Shown here: positions 6,118-38,509 of the stretch, in pieces | Layout of the letters: each line of letters begins with the position of its first letter | Numbering within the stretch: the stretch's first letter is position 1 | NCBI RefSeq assembly: GCF_003790525.1 | Contig: NZ_CP033635.1 | Length of the DNA stretch: 64,000 nt | Source: Escherichia coli | GTDB taxonomy: Bacteria; Pseudomonadota; Gammaproteobacteria; Enterobacterales; Enterobacteriaceae | Strand: one strand, 5' to 3' | The notes under the pieces: generated by a model | The model's input: only the letters and a program-made list of their open reading frames with translations | Database searches by the model: none | Told to the model about the DNA's origin: nothing | Program-made: the position numbers and the translations under genes

Positions 6118-6125
6118 AATCTCGA

Positions 6126-6869
6126 TTAACCACGTCCGACATACGGCATATTATTTGCCATAATCGTTATTTCCAGCACATTCGTGGTTACTGGCAACTG
6201 AGCCATCATCTGAATGGTCGCTGCAACATCAGCAACATTCATCATATCTTCCGCTTTAATAGCACCATCTGCCTGATAAACGCCCTTACGCATCCGATTC
6301 GATAATGTCGTTTCCGCATTGCCGATATTAATTTGCCCGCAAGCGATATTAAATTTGCGACAATCCAGGGAAATGGCCTTGGTCAACCCGGTAACAGCAT
6401 GTTTCGACGCCGTGTATGGCGCAGTATAGAGGCGCGGCGTCAGTGCAGAAATCGACGCATTGTTAATAATACGTCCTCCCATTGGCTGCTGCGCTTTCAT
6501 GATTTTAATCGCCTCTTTCGAACACAAAAATGTCGAATGAATATTGGCGTTAAACACGCGCGTCCACTCAGTAAACTCAACCTCTTCAATACTTTTTGCC
6601 GGACTATTATTGCCCGCATTTTTGAACAAGAGATCCAGTCGACCAAAAAGAGCCTTAATCTCGGCAAATAGCGCAACGACAGCGGACTCATCCGTGACAT
6701 CGGCAACCAGAGGAATAAAGCGTTCCTTGGCTAATCCTTGTGCACATTGCTGTAAGGTTTCTTCGTTACGCGCGGCAACAATAACTGTATATCCAATGTC
6801 ATAGAGTGCCTTTGCTGCTGCGTAGCCGATGCCTTTACTTCCCCCCGTCACCAGGGCAATTTTTGTCAT
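6126..6869 (-). CDS. Short-chain dehydrogenase/reductase (SDR) family oxidoreductase
   Basis: 247-aa ORF with TGGSKGIG Rossmann motif, NAG motif and catalytic YTASK. No equivalent gene is recalled at this position in K-12. Confidence 0.8.
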   Translation of the reverse strand: MTKIALVTGGSKGIGYAAAKALYDIGYTVIVAARNEETLQQCAQGLAKERFIPLVADVTDESAVVALFAEIKALFGRLDLLFKNAGNNSPAKSIEEVEFTEWTRVFNANIHSTFLCSKEAIKIMKAQQPMGGRIINNASISALTPRLYTAPYTASKHAVTGLTKAISLDCRKFNIACGQINIGNAETTLSNRMRKGVYQADGAIKAEDMMNVADVAATIQMMAQLPVTTNVLEITIMANNMPYVGRG

Positions 6870-6881
6870 AGCCAGCTCCGC

Positions 6882-7361
6882 CTATAATAAACTCATGTCG
6901 ATTTTCACGACTGTTTTTTTGATTTTTTCCACGTTATCGATTTTATAGCATGCCCGATGCACTTCTTCCGGAAAGACCACCACAAACTGTCCTGGTGTCA
7001 GCGTGATGATTCGATCATTAATACGTTCATCAGCATAAAAAATAACATCACGGTCGCCCAGGTGGCTTTCTACAACCGAGTTTTCCCCATCATCAAAATC
7101 CACACAAATCCGCTCTTCTCCGGCAATTAAAAAATGGACATCAAGATATTTACGATGAACTTCCGGTCGACATTCATGTAGTGGTTTAGTCATCGGTTCA
7201 ACCACGGTATAAAATATTGAGTCATCCTGAATAAAAACCTTCTCTCCCACAGGAAGACTATTCAGATCATGTTGTGAAAGATACTCAATGACACGAGTGA
7301 TGACAGGATGAAATGTCCGCTTTTGTTGTTCACTAAGATACGCGATATCACCATAAATCAT
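6882..7361 (-). CDS. YhcH/YjgK/YiaL (DUF386) family protein
   Basis: Track ORF 6882..7496 trimmed to the internal ATG (MIYGDIAYLSEQQKRTFHPVI...), about 159 aa. An RBS-like aaggcgga lies upstream, and the longer ORF would overlap the upstream dehydrogenase. Confidence 0.65.
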   Translation of the reverse strand: MIYGDIAYLSEQQKRTFHPVITRVIEYLSQHDLNSLPVGEKVFIQDDSIFYTVVEPMTKPLHECRPEVHRKYLDVHFLIAGEERICVDFDDGENSVVESHLGDRDVIFYADERINDRIITLTPGQFVVVFPEEVHRACYKIDNVEKIKKTVVKIDMSLL

Positions 7362-7371
7362 ATTTTCCGCC

Positions 7372-8330
7372 TTATTGAGTAACAGGGGTAATAACTGGCC
7401 GTCCGCTAAAGAAAGCCTGTAAGTTATCAAATACCAAATCCGCCATCGCATTAAACGTTTCGCTCGTACCACTGGCGATATGTGGCGTAAGGACAACGTT
7501 ATCCAGCGACATTAATTGTTCTGGCACATGTGGTTCGTTGGCATAAACGTCCAGTGCCGCACCAGCAATGATGTTATTTTGCAGAGCATCAATCAGATCG
7601 GTTTCGTTCACCACTGATCCCCGGGAAATACTGATCAAATGCCCGGTTTTCCCCAGAGCCTGCAGCACCGTTTTGTCAATAACGCCGCGCGTACTCGCGC
7701 CGCCTGGCAGCGTCAGAACGAGGAAGTCCACCGCTTGCGCCAGAGAAACCAACGAATCATGCGCCGTCCAATCAGGTTTGTTATGCGGTTTTGGGTCGAA
7801 ATAGTGAATTTCCATTTCAAATGCTGCTGCACGGCGGGCTACTGCGTTACCAATGTTCCCCAGACCGACAATTCCGCAACGTTTGCCACTCACTTTCGTC
7901 GCCATCGGGAAACGCCCCTCGTTTGGCCAACGGCCGTCACGAACATAACAATCGGCAATGTTAATACGTCGGGCAACATTGAGTAACAACGCTATACCAA
8001 TGTCTGCGACACAGTCATTAAGCACGCCAGGTGTGTTGGTGACGATAACGCCATGCTCCCTGGCTGCCACGATATCAATAGGGTCATAACCCACACCGTT
8101 GCTGGCAATAATCTTCAGATTCGGAATTTTTCTATTAGCGCCCGAGAAGCCCCCATTACCGGATTACCACTGGTCACCAGCGCCTGAATATCCGGCGCGA
8201 TTTGCGTGTAAAAAGCGCCTTCATCAGCCAGTTCCCACAGGCGATATGCGGTGAAGGTAGATTCAACTTTAGCCATTAAGCGGTCACTTAATTTGCCGAC
8301 GATCGCCACTTGAATATCTTTTAAGTTCAT
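7372..8330 (-). pseudogene. D-isomer-specific 2-hydroxyacid dehydrogenase (glyoxylate/hydroxypyruvate reductase-like), disrupted by a frameshift
   Basis: The N-terminal 71 aa (8115..8330, ..ALIEKFRI*) and the remaining 240 aa (7372..8094) are in different frames. Reading the second frame upstream restores the expected ..PNLKIIASNGVGYD.. motif, consistent with a 1-bp deletion near 8118-8127. Confidence 0.7.
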
Positions 8331-8365
8331 ACACTATTCCTTGATTGATGTTTGTCGCAGGCCAC

Positions 8366-9766
8366 TTACCACAGGCCAAGAATTTTCCACCACACCGCCC
8401 CCAGTCCGAACCAGATGGCAATGTTCAACAACATGACGATAAAGCCCAGCCGCCACCATTCTCGTTGCGAGACATAGCCAGCGCCGTAATAGATCACTGC
8501 GGGTCCGTTGCCATAATGCGAAATGCCGCTCATCAGGTTAGTGACGAACGCCAGTGACAGAGCCGCCATCATCGGCGGTGCGCCAGCAGCAACCGAGACG
8601 CTGCCAAAAGCGGCATACATCGCCACTACATGCGGCGTACTTCCGGCAAAGAAATAGTGGGAATAGCAGTAAACTATCAGCAACACCGTCAACGTTATCT
8701 CCCACGGAATGCCGGTGAACAGCGCCGAGGTTGTGACGGCAAACCATTTGAACAGGCCAAGCTGATTGAGCTTATCTGCCATACAGATCATGACTCCCAG
8801 CCAGACCAGAATGTCCCAGGCCCCCTTCTCTGACTGCACATCCTGCCAGGTGATAATCCGGGTCATCAACATTAAACAGACGCCAGAAAGCGCGACAGCC
8901 GTCGCATCCAGGCCAGTCCATTTCGATGTACTCCAGGCCAATAATGAAAGCAGGAAAATGCCAATTGTCACGCGCTCATCACGGGTTACCGGCCCCATTT
9001 TGATAAGTTCTTCCTGTGCCAACGCTTTGGCTTCTGGCGTCTTTTTGATCTCTGGCGGGTAGAGTTTGTAAATGACCAACGGCATAGTGATAAAAGCGAT
9101 AATGCCCGGCACCAGTGCGCTTAGCGTCCACATCCCCCATGAGATATCGACAAATAAAGTGCTGGCCGCCAGAGATACAATGAGTGCATTTGGCGCGCTG
9201 GCCGTCATAAACATCGAGGATGAGAGACAGTTGGAATGGAACACCGTCTGCATCAGATAAGCGCCTATTTTACGCGGCCCTTGATCCGGTTCAGATCCAA
9301 AGCTGTTAGAGACACTGCGAACAATCGGGAACAAAATCCCTCCTGCTCGCGCTGTGTTTGATGGCGTTGCGGGCGCGATAATCATATCGCTTAGCGCCAA
9401 TGTATAACCCAGACGCAACGAGCTGCCGCCAAATCCGCGAATCAGCAAATAGGCGATACGCCGCCCCAACCCCGTTTTGATGAATCCTTTCGCGTACAGG
9501 AATGCGGCGACAATAAGCCATACCGTCGTGCTGCTGAAACCTTTTAAGGCTTCGCTGGTTTTCATCATACCGGTCAGCATAATAAAACTGATGGCTATTA
9601 ACGCGATAGCGCCCACCGGCAACGGTTGCAGAATAAACGCCACCACAGTGGTGATAAATATGGCCAGAATGTGCCAGGTTAAGGGTGTTAATCCGTCGGG
9701 GACGGGGAAAAACCATATAGCGAGTGCGACAATCGCACAAATCAGGACTTTCAAATAGCAACTCAT
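8366..9766 (-). CDS. DASS-family anion permease (CitT/TtdT/YbhI-like di/tricarboxylate transporter)
   Basis: About 466-aa polytopic membrane ORF; the track starts at a TTG (9772), the first ATG is at 9766 with an aggga RBS-like sequence upstream. First gene of a four-gene minus-strand operon. Confidence 0.8.
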   Translation of the reverse strand: MSCYLKVLICAIVALAIWFFPVPDGLTPLTWHILAIFITTVVAFILQPLPVGAIALIAISFIMLTGMMKTSEALKGFSSTTVWLIVAAFLYAKGFIKTGLGRRIAYLLIRGFGGSSLRLGYTLALSDMIIAPATPSNTARAGGILFPIVRSVSNSFGSEPDQGPRKIGAYLMQTVFHSNCLSSSMFMTASAPNALIVSLAASTLFVDISWGMWTLSALVPGIIAFITMPLVIYKLYPPEIKKTPEAKALAQEELIKMGPVTRDERVTIGIFLLSLLAWSTSKWTGLDATAVALSGVCLMLMTRIITWQDVQSEKGAWDILVWLGVMICMADKLNQLGLFKWFAVTTSALFTGIPWEITLTVLLIVYCYSHYFFAGSTPHVVAMYAAFGSVSVAAGAPPMMAALSLAFVTNLMSGISHYGNGPAVIYYGAGYVSQREWWRLGFIVMLLNIAIWFGLGAVWWKILGLW

Positions 9767-12964: not shown

Positions 12965-13798
12965 ATGGATAATGCTGTTGATCGCCACGTTTTTTATATT
13001 TCTGATGGTACGGCAATAACTGCGGAGGTATTAGGACACGCAGTAATGTCACAATTTCCCGTCACTATCAGCAGCATTACGCTGCCGTTTGTCGAAAATG
13101 AGAGCCGTGCACGGGCAGTGAAGGATCAGATTGACGCAATTTATCACCAGACAGGCGTGCGCCCGCTGGTCTTCTACTCCATCGTGTTGCCGGAGATTCG
13201 CGCCATCATCTTGCAAAGTGAGGGCTTTTGCCAGGATATCGTTCAGGCGCTGGTTGCCCCGCTACAACAAGAGATGAAACTGGATCCCACGCCGATTGCT
13301 CATCGTACCCATGGCCTGAACCCTAATAACCTCAATAAATATGATGCGCGTATTGCGGCGATTGATTACACCCTTGCCCATGACGACGGCATTTCGTTGC
13401 GCAATCTGGACCAGGCTCAGGTGATCCTGCTCGGTGTTTCTCGCTGTGGTAAAACCCCCACCAGTCTGTATCTGGCAATGCAATTTGGTATCCGCGCGGC
13501 AAACTACCCCTTTATTGCCGACGATATGGATAATCTGGTGCTACCCGCGTCGCTCAAACCGCTTCAGCACAAATTGTTCGGCCTGACTATCGACCCGGAA
13601 CGTCTGGCGGCGATTCGCGAGGAACGTCGGGAGAACAGTCGCTATGCCTCGCTTCGTCAGTGCAGGATGGAAGTCGCGGAAGTGGAAGCGTTGTACCGTA
13701 AAAATCAGATCCCGTGGATTAACAGTACCAATTATTCGGTAGAAGAGATTGCCACCAAGATCCTCGATATCATGGGCCTTAGCCGTCGAATGTACTAG
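12965..13798 (+). CDS. ppsR: PEP synthase regulatory protein (bifunctional kinase/pyrophosphorylase)
   Basis: 277-aa ORF ([27 protein letters not shown]...) of the DUF299/PSRP family, divergent from ppsA. Confidence 0.93.
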
Positions 13799-13954: not shown

Positions 13955-15001
13955 ATGAACAGAACTGACGAACTCCGTACTGCGCGTATTGAGAGCCTGG
14001 TAACGCCCGCCGAACTCGCGCTACGGTATCCCGTAACGCCTGGCGTCGCCACCCATGTCACCGACTCCCGCCGCAGAATTGAAAAAATACTGAATGGTGA
14101 AGATAAGCGACTGTTGGTCATTATTGGCCCCTGCTCGATCCACGATCTCACCGCTGCAATGGAGTACGCCACCCGTCTGCAGTCGCTGCGCAACCAGTAC
14201 CAGTCACGGCTGGAAATCGTAATGCGCACCTATTTTGAAAAACCACGAACTGTTGTCGGCTGGAAAGGACTCATCTCCGATCCAGATTTAAACGGTAGCT
14301 ATCGGGTAAATCACGGTCTGGAGCTGGCGCGCAAATTACTTTTACAGGTAAATGAGCTGGGCGTCCCTACCGCGACTGAGTTCCTCGATATGGTGACCGG
14401 TCAGTTTATTGCTGATTTAATCAGTTGGGGCGCGATTGGCGCTCGTACTACCGAAAGTCAGATCCACCGCGAAATGGCTTCAGCACTCTCCTGTCCGGTA
14501 GGTTTTAAAAATGGTACCGATGGCAACACGCGGATTGCCGTGGATGCTATCCGCGCAGCCCGCGCCAGCCATATGTTCCTCTCACCAGACAAAAACGGTC
14601 AGATGACCATCTATCAGACCAGTGGCAACCCGTATGGCCATATTATTATGCGTGGCGGCAAAAAACCGAATTACCATGCCGATGATATCGCCGCAGCCTG
14701 CGATACGCTGCACGAGTTTGATTTACCTGAACATCTGGTGGTGGATTTCAGCCACGGTAACTGCCAGAAGCAGCACCGTCGCCAGTTAGAAGTTTGTGAG
14801 GATATTTGTCAGCAAATCCGCAATGGCTCTACGGCGATTGCTGGAATTATGGCGGAAAGTTTCCTGCGCGAAGGAACGCAAAAAATCGTCGGCGGTCAGC
14901 CGCTCACTTACGGTCAATCGATTACCGACCCGTGTCTGGGCTGGGAAGATACCGAACGCCTGGTCGAAAAACTCGCCTCTGCGGTTGATACCCGCTTCTG
15001 A
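13955..15001 (+). CDS. aroH: 3-deoxy-D-arabino-heptulosonate-7-phosphate synthase, Trp-sensitive
   Basis: 348-aa ORF (MNRTDELRTARIESLVTPAELA...) of class I DAHP synthase; length and context match AroH. Confidence 0.95.
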   Translation: MNRTDELRTARIESLVTPAELALRYPVTPGVATHVTDSRRRIEKILNGEDKRLLVIIGPCSIHDLTAAMEYATRLQSLRNQYQSRLEIVMRTYFEKPRTVVGWKGLISDPDLNGSYRVNHGLELARKLLLQVNELGVPTATEFLDMVTGQFIADLISWGAIGARTTESQIHREMASALSCPVGFKNGTDGNTRIAVDAIRAARASHMFLSPDKNGQMTIYQTSGNPYGHIIMRGGKKPNYHADDIAAACDTLHEFDLPEHLVVDFSHGNCQKQHRRQLEVCEDICQQIRNGSTAIAGIMAESFLREGTQKIVGGQPLTYGQSITDPCLGWEDTERLVEKLASAVDTRF

Positions 15002-15007
15002 ATGCGT

Positions 15008-15036
15008 GCCCATTCCTGACGGAATGGGCATTTCTG
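15008..15036 (+). terminator. aroH terminator hairpin
   Basis: Stem gcccattcc/ggaatgggc with loop tgac, followed by atttctg. Confidence 0.5.
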
Positions 15037-15091
15037 CGCAACTTGTTGTCTTCTCAACACATTACTGCTTGCTCTGGCCCGCCAGAATATT

Positions 15092-15115
15092 GATAATAAG
15101 AATCATTGTTATATC
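15092..15115. promoter_or_regulatory. Fur box upstream of ydiE
   Basis: gataataagaatcattgttatatc is close to the Fur consensus gataatgataatcattatc, just upstream of the hemP-like ydiE. Confidence 0.5.
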
Positions 15116-15132
15116 AATTATTATTAATTTTT

Positions 15133-15324
15133 ATGCGTTATACGGATAGCAGAAAATTCACGCCTGAAACGGATGCCAATCACAAGACCGCTTCCCCGCA
15201 GCCCATTCGGCGAATTACCAGCCAGACACTGTTAGGTCCGGATGGCAAACTGATTATCGATCATGACGGGCAAGAATATCTGCTCCGTAAAACTCAGGCT
15301 GGCAAGCTGCTGTTGACCAAGTAG
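15133..15324 (+). CDS. ydiE: HemP-like hemin uptake small protein
   Basis: Track ORF 15106..15324 trimmed to [23 protein letters not shown]..., 63 aa. Confidence 0.8.
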
Positions 15325-15327
15325 CCT

Positions 15328-16803
<1,476 letters not shown>

Positions 16804-16826: not shown

Positions 16827-17540
16827 TTATCGCTGAACCAACGTCGTTATCTGATTTACAGGAACGGCAGGCCACAGGCATCCCTGGAGAGCATGGAAAT
16901 CAAAGGGGGTAATCTGTGCCATTATTTCTGGCGTATCAATGCCCCCCGCGATGATGCAATTGCAACATGGGGAAATTTGCGCCTGGATCGCACGAATAAA
17001 CGGTTCGAAGGAGCGATGCGTGATTTGTTGCTGAATAAAACTTTTATCCAGCATGACGCGGGTGAAAAGACCATCAAAAACCGCTTTCATTGTGCTATTG
17101 CCTGCGCCCAAATTACCTAACACAAGGGGATACATTTGCGATAAGGAAAAAAGATCGCGATTATCTTTTCCTTCATCGAGATGCGGGTAATTCTCATTAA
17201 TCAACAGTTCAATAAACGGATATTTTAATAGTTCGCCCGCGTAATTATCCCTGTCTAATAATAAAGTAGCCACTTGTGGGGTTAAATTAAGCCAGGCAAA
17301 GAGTTTATGTTGAATAAAAAAGTGTTGGCATGATTTTAGCAATTCCAACTGCTCAGAAAATAATTGCCAATGTTGCTCCTCGGTAAGTTGCGCTATAACC
17401 CGACTCGTCGGTATACGAACCGTACCATCTTCACTGGAGAAATGGGTAATTAACTCAACGCCGACAAGGTCTTGCTGGTTATCTCTTATCGGCAGGAAAT
17501 AGCAATCAGAATGATAAAGATTCTCCAAAAAAATCTTCAT
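16827..17540 (-). CDS. ydiV: Anti-FlhD4C2 factor, degenerate EAL-domain protein
   Basis: 237-aa ORF (MKIFLENLYHSDCYFLPIRDNQQDLVGVELITHF...); AT-rich gene matching YdiV. Confidence 0.9.
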   Translation of the reverse strand: MKIFLENLYHSDCYFLPIRDNQQDLVGVELITHFSSEDGTVRIPTSRVIAQLTEEQHWQLFSEQLELLKSCQHFFIQHKLFAWLNLTPQVATLLLDRDNYAGELLKYPFIELLINENYPHLDEGKDNRDLFSLSQMYPLVLGNLGAGNSTMKAVFDGLFTRVMLDKSFIQQQITHRSFEPFIRAIQAQISPCCNCIIAGGIDTPEIMAQITPFDFHALQGCLWPAVPVNQITTLVQR

Positions 17541-23478: not shown

Positions 23479-24504
<1,026 letters not shown>

Positions 24505-37705: not shown

Positions 37706-38509
37706 TTATGCTGGCAACGGTCCGTTTTGTATAGGGACCGTTGCCTTACTTTTTAAATGTTCCATCGCGGCGATGCATACTGACTCATATTGAAACAGAT
37801 CGTCAGCGAAAAAAATGGCCAACTTATCAATACATTCCTGGCTCAATGAATGTGCCTGTAGCGAGAAGCTTAAAACCTCATACCCGAGACGTTTTCTAAG
37901 TGAACTATCTGAAATACTCATAATATCTTCAAGCACACCATTTCCCATTCCCGGAAGATTTAGTGGATTAAAAAGAAGACTGATATTAAGCATTGATATT
38001 ATCGAAGGAAACTTTAGGAGACTCTCATTTTTTTGAATCGCAGCAAAAATGCTCCCGACAGGATGTATATAATTTTGTTCATAGTATATAGTCCTTAAAT
38101 AGTGAATAACCAACCTGTTTTTTATATTGATCAAATTGGTCATTTTTTCTGGGCGAAATACAGAAGTGACATCCATTCCAATAAAATCTTTATTTATACC
38201 TCTTATCCGAATTTCACTACCATAAAGATTATTAATTATTACTCTATATTTAACATTGTCCTGCAGATATGTATCAAAACTAAGTGCTGGCGCTCCTGGC
38301 TTTGAGGCATCATAGTTAATGTTAGACATATAGGCAATCATATAATTAAAGTTTGATTCTGCTATTTCATCGCAGTCACATTGACCCGTTGATATAAAGA
38401 AAGTGAGTGCTGTCATAGTAGACTGCAGCCTTTCTTTAAAAGAGTCGAAAGCCAGGCTTTTAATATTTAAATCACCATAATTACTCTGTATTAAGTTTGT
38501 AGAAAGCAT
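37706..38509 (-). CDS. ydjO: Uncharacterized protein YdjO (AT-rich gene)
   Basis: Track ORF 271 aa; trimmed to the second Met (MLSTNLIQSNYGDLNIK...) for 267 aa. About 35% GC. Confidence 0.8.
   Translation of the reverse strand: MLSTNLIQSNYGDLNIKSLAFDSFKERLQSTMTALTFFISTGQCDCDEIAESNFNYMIAYMSNINYDASKPGAPALSFDTYLQDNVKYRVIINNLYGSEIRIRGINKDFIGMDVTSVFRPEKMTNLINIKNRLVIHYLRTIYYEQNYIHPVGSIFAAIQKNESLLKFPSIISMLNISLLFNPLNLPGMGNGVLEDIMSISDSSLRKRLGYEVLSFSLQAHSLSQECIDKLAIFFADDLFQYESVCIAAMEHLKSKATVPIQNGPLPA
37712..37750 (+). terminator. tcyP (ydjN) terminator hairpin
   Basis: ggcaacggtcc-gttttgtatag-ggaccgttgcc followed by ttacttttt; it lies inside the 3' coding end of the convergent ydjO. Confidence 0.5.

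Follow-up and report, generated by a model that had tools for sequence, protein, structure and literature searches.

A conserved Fur box upstream of the HemP-family gene ydiE of Escherichia coli and its probable role as the operator for iron-dependent repression

Introduction

The closest described counterpart of the site analyzed here is the Fur site of ydiE (b1705) in Escherichia coli K-12. A Fur cluster was predicted at this gene by Chen et al. (2007; PMC2189734), who reported 10 walkers spanning 53 bp and a strongest site of 20.1 bits at coordinate 1787602, i.e., at -35 from the gene start. The same authors cited microarray support for ydiE, and their entry carries no flag for a footprint or a gel shift; the literature consulted here likewise yielded no in vitro footprint of this DNA. 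Fur binding at ydiE was later located by ChIP-exo (Gao et al. 2023; PMC10164565). The Fur regulation of ydiE is therefore already known from the 2007 prediction, the microarray cited by Chen et al. and the ChIP-exo location. In Salmonella enterica, the orthologue (STM1346) occupies the same place after the aroH hairpin; it presents a predicted Fur site and its expression was increased 7.4-fold in a Δfur strain of S. Typhimurium (PMC3212961).

Related arrangements are found outside these two species. In Yersinia enterocolitica hemPRSTUV and in proteobacterial HemP/HmuP/ChuP systems, a Fur box precedes a gene of the PF10636 family and confers iron repression, as for ydiE. There, hemP is the first gene of a heme-uptake operon, and its product regulates heme-receptor genes, whereas ydiE of E. 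coli is monocistronic, lies between aroH and selO and is not accompanied by adjacent heme-uptake genes. The canonical Fur promoters (fepA-fes, entC, fiu, cirA, sodA, sufA, tonB and exbB) share with ydiE overlapping registers in 6-bp phase and, probably, a position over the core promoter. These promoters control transporters or biosynthetic enzymes, whereas the product of ydiE is a cytoplasmic protein of 63 aa. In addition, the array of ydiE differs from that of the canonical promoters in that it crosses a leader devoid of Shine-Dalgarno sequence up to the start codon.

Here, we analyzed a stretch of 64,000 nucleotides of an E. coli genome (contig NZ_CP033635.1 of assembly GCF_003790525.1), hereafter the window. 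An original prediction made from the sequence of this window had proposed a Fur-box-like site immediately upstream of ydiE, in the short spacer that follows aroH. We evaluated this site based on its sequence, its statistical strength, its conservation and the published binding and expression data.

Results

Organization of the locus

The region surrounding the site (bases 14700-15500) is 100% identical to E. coli SMS-3-5 and is present in 5422 of the 5426 complete E. coli genomes. Relative to K-12, the aroH-ydiE spacer of the window differs only at positions 15060, 15078, 15080 and 15085. These four substitutions are all located upstream of the Fur box, and the two sequences are identical from position 15086 to the ATG of ydiE. 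The experimental data discussed below were obtained in other strains, the SMS-3-5-like strain of the window being absent from the nine strains assayed. However, because the differences in the spacer all lie outside the box, the binding and expression data of K-12 apply directly to the window. The features of the locus are presented in Table 1. Further upstream, we observed that the fadK-ppsA interval of the window strain contains an insertion of four genes (~6125-9766) encoding an SDR oxidoreductase, a YhcH/YjgK/YiaL protein, a 2-hydroxyacid dehydrogenase and an anion permease. This insertion is missing from BL21(DE3), where fadK directly adjoins ppsA.

Table 1. Coordinates of the genes, candidate regulatory elements and mapped binding data at the ydiE locus (window numbering).
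Feature	Position	Strand	Details
ppsR	12965-13798	+	
aroH	13955-15001	+	upstream neighbour of ydiE
aroH-ydiE spacer			131 bp
Hairpin after aroH	15009-15030	+	GCCCATTCC-TGAC-GGAATGGGC, then AUUUCU
Candidate -35 (TTGCTC)	15069-15074	+	TTG in 14/14 orthologues, always 17 bp from GATAAT
Core Fur operator (probable)	15089-15113		15089-15107 (21.5 bits), 15092-15110 (15/19), 15095-15113 (12.9 bits)
Extended Fur-site cluster	15089-15141		53 bp, 12 registers with positive scores (3- and 6-bp phase), over the start codon
Published promoter (TTGATA-16-TATCAA)	15090-15117	+	-35 at 15090-15095, -10 at 15112-15117 (PMC3946193)
Candidate -10 (GATAAT)	15092-15097	+	inside the Fur box
W3110 Fur ChIP-exo peak	15101-15113		transferred through the ydiE ATG; inside the box
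ydiE (annotated hemP)	15133-15324	+	63 aa, Fur-regulated gene
selO (ydiU)	15328-16764	-	convergent with ydiE
ydiV	16827-17540	-	start codon at 17540

Sequence and statistical strength of the Fur box

The 24-mer given in the original prediction (gataataagaatcattgttatatc) is found exactly where it had been placed, at 15092-15115 on the + strand. It had been described as matching the Fur consensus at most positions, and GATAATAAGAATCATTGTT (15092-15110) does agree at 15 of 19 positions with GATAATGATAATCATTATC, the classical 19-bp consensus. A census of mismatches over the ~128,000 positions of both strands revealed that this is the sole 15/19 match of the window, and no sequence of the 64-kb window reached 16/19 (three mismatches or fewer). 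Seven positions presented 14/19 matches, two of which correspond to the reverse strand of the ydiE site and to the register located 6 bp upstream. This is the pattern of overlapping arrays of Fur hexamers, and the registers matching the consensus at ydiE indeed follow a 6-bp phase (15086, 15092 and 15098).

Because the match to the consensus was considered only as a lead, we built an independent Fur matrix. The training set consisted of 15 ChIP-exo peaks of strain W3110 (Gao et al. 2023, PMC10164565, Dataset 2) that lie between genes, are occupied by Fur under iron-replete conditions and are attributed to genes listed in the Fur iModulon tables of the same study; ydiE was excluded. Motifs were searched within 30 bp on either side of the peak centers with an unseeded Gibbs sampler, which converged on AATGAAAATGATTATCAAT, recognizably a Fur box. 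The leave-one-out scores of the training sites ranged from 10.8 to 24.3 bits with a median of 20.2. The best match in the entire window was ATTGATAATAAGAATCATT at 15089-15107 on the + strand with a score of 21.5 bits, which falls within the range of the canonical promoters listed above, whose sites served to train the matrix, and the runner-up scored 6.4 bits lower (15.1 bits). None of 200 windows randomized under a first-order Markov model reached 21.5 bits (the mean of their maxima was 15.0 and the largest was 20.9). Matrix scoring, which had been proposed as a check of the prediction, thus ranks the site first, and both the consensus and the independent matrix identify it as a Fur box. The center of this best match (15098) corresponds exactly to the -35 position of the strongest site of Chen et al., and the 53-bp extent of the surrounding cluster is also the same as theirs. 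The ydiE site is a real Fur site that lies far beyond chance expectation.

The interval first proposed for the site (15092-15115) was correct in location but not in extent: the strongest register begins 3 bp further upstream, and positive registers continue to position 15141. These registers form the densest cluster of positive Fur-matrix scores in the window. The other matches in the window, at 24048, 27637, 55033 and 62511, were rejected as Fur sites since they are at chance level and within coding sequences. The dense spots near 38 kb were rejected on the same grounds, as they score at chance level inside coding sequences such as ydjO and ynjC.

Nucleotide composition must be considered here, since the tract 15086-15132 contains just 11% G+C. 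The match could in principle merely reflect the A+T richness of the promoter and leader, possibly an H-NS-bound tract, where Fur would exert no sequence-specific action. H-NS binding was flagged in the aroH-ydiE spacer by Shimada et al. (PMC3946193), and Fur-like matches of low score do become more frequent in A+T-rich DNA: the cluster of weak registers that ranks second in density (37949-38250) is inside the A+T-rich coding sequence of ydjO, where we take it to be an effect of composition and not a Fur site. At ydiE, however, the chance of reaching 21.5 bits is 3e-6 per 19-mer even when the background is set to 15% G+C.

Conservation in Escherichia, Citrobacter and Salmonella

We then compared the site across species. 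Scanning a single genome for each species, we identified 13 loci encoding a relative of YdiE, 12 of which retain the position after the aroH hairpin. These 12 loci, from Escherichia, Citrobacter and Salmonella, were aligned with K-12 and the window (14 sequences in total). The sequence TTGATAATAAnAATCATTGT was invariant across the 14 orthologues except for one column, while the spacer has diverged on both sides of it. Between Escherichia and Citrobacter/Salmonella, identity reached 0.89 in the box and was only 0.41-0.51 upstream and 0.66 downstream. This difference further argues against a by-product of composition, since the adjoining downstream leader is equally A+T-rich. In each of the 14 orthologues, the best matrix match occupied the same anchored position, and its score ranged from 16.7 to 23.0 bits. 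The highest of these values is that of the core box of Salmonella subspecies arizonae and diarizonae (ATTGATAATAATAATCATT), which differs from the window at one position; the spacer between hairpin and box is 25-27 bp longer in Salmonella than in the window. Within E. coli, 4240 complete genomes possess the 33-mer of 15086-15118 without any change, and 1101 possess it with one mismatch.

Fur binding and expression of ydiE

The ChIP-exo dataset of Gao et al. (PMC10164565, Dataset 2) contains Fur peaks for ydiE at 1787605-1787617 in MG1655 and at 1791295-1791307 in W3110. Both peaks are flagged "R", which denotes binding in iron-replete cells only according to the footnote of the dataset, and the MG1655 peak is marked as found also in the earlier dataset of Seo et al. 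Fur binding at ydiE was reported in each of the nine E. coli strains of the study (PMC10164565). Occupancy restricted to iron-replete cells is the behavior expected of Fe2+-Fur. With the ATG of hemP at 1791327 in W3110, the W3110 peak is positioned at -32 to -20 and can be transferred to the box of the window through the ydiE ATG (Table 1). The MG1655 coordinates, which we presume to follow the older U00096.2 numbering, give the same offset; the mapping of the W3110 peak is independent of this assumption.

Expression data were obtained by RNA-seq comparisons of Δfur and wild-type strains in iron-replete medium (PMC10164565). In Δfur, the reads of ydiE rose from ~11 to ~86 in MG1655 (log2 fold-change of 2.87) and from 0 to ~32 in W3110 (8.14), and the log2 fold-change was 5.24, 2.91, 7.08, 3.20, 2.23 and 5.16 in six further strains. 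In total, ydiE was upregulated 5- to 280-fold (log2FC +2.2 to +8.1) in eight of the nine strains, and the gene was included by the authors in a core Fur regulon of 36 genes (PMC10164565). The dependence of ydiE on iron and Fur, on which the original prediction had been made to hinge, is thus borne out by peaks specific to iron-replete cells and by derepression in eight of nine strains and in Salmonella. Because the match remains strong under A+T-matched statistics, because the box and the leader are differentially conserved and because the ChIP signal on the box depends on iron, we rule out a fortuitous match in A+T-rich or H-NS-bound DNA as an extremely improbable explanation; the strong derepression of ydiE in Δfur argues in the same direction.

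BL21(DE3) is the one exception to the core regulon singled out by the authors: ydiE decreases in the Δfur derivative of this strain (log2FC -1.10) despite the Fur binding reported in all nine strains (PMC10164565). This raises the question of whether the action of Fur on ydiE differs from simple repression in some strains, Fur having for instance a positive role or serving as an anti-silencer. We examined the BL21(DE3) spacer and found a single difference from K-12, a T-to-A substitution at base 33985, which is equivalent to window position 15088 and borders the box on its upstream side, one base before the strongest Fur 19-mer. The score of the core box is unchanged by this substitution, and we saw no cause in cis for the BL21 response in the spacer. 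In the window, position 15088 is occupied by the common T, and the box does not differ from that of K-12. Considering the classic derepression observed in the eight remaining strains and in Salmonella, and binding confined to iron-replete cells, we find a role of Fur at ydiE other than simple repression scarcely credible.

One additional ChIP-exo observation concerns ydiV, the gene of an anti-FlhDC factor. An iron-replete Fur peak of W3110 (1793696-1793708) corresponds to ~17502-17514 of the window, in the first codons of ydiV on the - strand. Two weak Fur-like matches are found under this peak, at 17504-17522 (12.4 bits) and at 17507-17525 (14/19 relative to the consensus). Assuming again the older U00096.2 numbering, the peak assigned to ydiV in MG1655 would lie farther upstream of this gene, by ~110 bp. 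The segment 17502-17528 could represent a weak intragenic Fur site in ydiV.

Candidate promoters of ydiE

A promoter was placed in the aroH-ydiE spacer by Shimada et al. (2014; PMC3946193) based on genomic SELEX with the RpoD holoenzyme (TTGATA-16-TATCAA; Table 1). We scored every possible pairing of -35 and -10 hexamers across the 14 orthologues, using the Fur box as an anchor. The best-conserved pairing was a different one: TTGCnn separated by exactly 17 bp from GATAAT. Positions A2 and T6 of this -10 hexamer were kept in all 14 orthologues. Outside Escherichia, the published -10 hexamer (TATCAA) shows no conservation, and it retained only one to three of six matches in Citrobacter and Salmonella. 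Since GATAAT forms part of the Fur box, its own conservation is confounded. In contrast, the TTG found at a fixed distance represents independent evidence for a promoter, especially because the aroH hairpin and the box are separated by a variable distance (60-95 bp). The conserved pairing TTGCnn-17-GATAAT, whose -10 hexamer lies in the Fur box and whose leader lacks a Shine-Dalgarno sequence, may be the functional promoter of ydiE in place of the published TTGATA-16-TATCAA.

We searched for mapped transcription start sites of ydiE in the supplements of the Cappable-seq (PMC4782308) and SMRT-Cappable-seq (PMC6131387) studies using both genome numberings and found none. Because these two datasets provided no start site, the overlap between the box and the promoter rests on the assignment of hexamers, and we infer the functioning hexamers and the start point from their sequence and conservation. 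The site had been predicted to overlap the likely promoter of ydiE, and this is the case with both candidate promoters, whether TTGCTC-17-GATAAT or TTGATA-16-TATCAA is considered. A strict scan for promoters and terminators over 14900-15400 returned nothing. We gave no weight to this result, as the filters bar both candidate promoters (one presents 8/12 matches and the other lacks the T at -7) as well as the aroH hairpin. A scan of 14800-15600 against Rfam yielded only one match, at chance level and inside selO, and no known RNA element.

We also observed a conserved block, ATTA-n3/4-CTTGC, that precedes the Fur box by ~20 bp in the window (15062-15072) and in its orthologues. We read the CTTGC as the putative -35 region, and the ATTA could be an UP-element-like sequence or the half-site of another regulator.

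The hairpin after aroH and convergence with selO

The original prediction had also placed a terminator hairpin of aroH just upstream of the site. The hairpin itself is well supported: it forms a G+C-rich stem of 9 bp with a UGAC loop (-21.4 kcal/mol, z = -4.6), and it is present in 14/14 orthologues with conserved arms and variable loops. Its function as the aroH terminator is probable, although a short U-tract causes it to be missed by the strict scan for terminators. In wild-type K-12, RNA-seq counts drop ~25-fold from aroH (~275 reads) to ydiE (~11 reads) (PMC10164565), which fits termination at the hairpin.

The layout downstream of ydiE invites another explanation of the Fur site. The stop codons of ydiE (15324) and of the convergent selO (15328) leave the two ORFs 3 nt apart, and more than 1.4 kb of the + strand past ydiE yielded no intrinsic terminator. 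The pair ydiE-selO is also among the overlapping convergent transcripts of ExcludonFinder (PMC12288877). Derepressed ydiE transcripts therefore probably run antisense into selO. It could be argued from this that the main output of the Fur site is to gate a terminator-less antisense transcript through selO (an excludon), or else, given the poor U-tract of the aroH hairpin, that Fur acts mainly as a roadblock to read-through from aroH. Mutual exclusion predicts that selO mRNA should decrease in Δfur, but selO was slightly increased (log2FC +0.32 in MG1655 and +1.6 in W3110). The changes of aroH in Δfur were small and of opposite sign in MG1655 and W3110, which does not favor a roadblock. Moreover, the YdiE protein is conserved, its structures have been solved and its family is typically controlled by Fur. 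It is therefore very unlikely that either of these outputs is the main one, and we favor the repression of ydiE itself.

The YdiE protein and its start codon

The 63-aa ORF downstream of the site had been described as HemP-like, and profile searches bear this out: residues 27-63 match PF10636 (hemP) of Pfam with an E-value of 3.2e-15 and 56.1 bits (cut-off 25), and the protein matches the NCBIfam equivalog NF007559 with 134 bits (cut-off 77). YdiE has also been crystallized (PDB entry 4YNX). No heme-uptake genes were found within the 64-kb window, the neighbours of ydiE being aroH and the convergent selO. A heme-uptake operon beside hemP is the typical context of the family but it is not a requirement for membership of HemP/HmuP, and ydiE is a stand-alone gene of this family.

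The annotated ATG of ydiE is not preceded by a Shine-Dalgarno sequence (15120-15135, atcaattattattaatttttATG). In Citrobacter and Salmonella, ydiE possesses a second ATG 9 nt downstream of the first, and in S. enterica subsp. arizonae the first ATG has been lost. Based on these sequences, the second ATG is likely the start codon of ydiE in Citrobacter and Salmonella; the Salmonella protein has a different N-terminus relative to that of E. coli, with a start codon that is probably different as well. The N-terminal third of YdiE has diverged among orthologues. A protein 97% identical to YdiE of the window was also encountered on a contig of 417 bp with a coverage of 0.8 (NZ_POTZ01001146.1) in the assembly of "Streptomyces sp. 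NTH33", which is almost certainly a contamination by E. coli DNA.

Discussion

Our results indicate, with a probability of roughly 0.93, that the core site at 15089-15113, together with weaker registers extending to ~15141, constitutes the operator through which Fe2+-Fur represses a sigma-70 promoter of ydiE. When iron is sufficient, Fur dimers would occupy overlapping sites in 6-bp phase. If TTGCTC-17-GATAAT is the promoter, these dimers would cover its -10 hexamer and the start region; under the published reading, TTGATA-16-TATCAA, they would instead mask its -35 hexamer and spacer. In either case, RNA polymerase would be excluded by Fur, which corresponds to classical repression by occlusion. 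When iron becomes scarce, Fur would leave and ydiE would be transcribed. The binding and the derepression are direct observations, and we infer from the position of the box that repression proceeds through steric occlusion. The Fur array runs on through the A+T-rich, Shine-Dalgarno-less leader up to the ATG of ydiE.

The present analysis adds little beyond a good annotation. It nevertheless shows that a genuine operator can be recognized from sequence alone, and it places this operator precisely in the strain analyzed here. The gene that it controls belongs to the core Fur regulon of E. coli, which comprises just 36 genes. Dub-seq fragments that encode YdiE guard BL21 against phage T5, whose receptor is FhuA. 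This protection is the sole clue to a role of YdiE in heme or iron acquisition, and it should be viewed as a hint.

The most novel consequence concerns selO, whose product is a protein AMPylase/UMPylase. Given the missing intrinsic terminator of ydiE and the 3-nt gap between the two ORFs, the Fur box could, in addition to controlling ydiE, switch antisense transcription across selO. We consider it unlikely, if less so than an antisense transcript being the main output of the site, that the box also serves as such an iron-dependent switch; a smaller novelty would be the use of TTGCnn-17-GATAAT as the working promoter. If the antisense switch were true, the iron status of the cell would be coupled to the levels of SelO.
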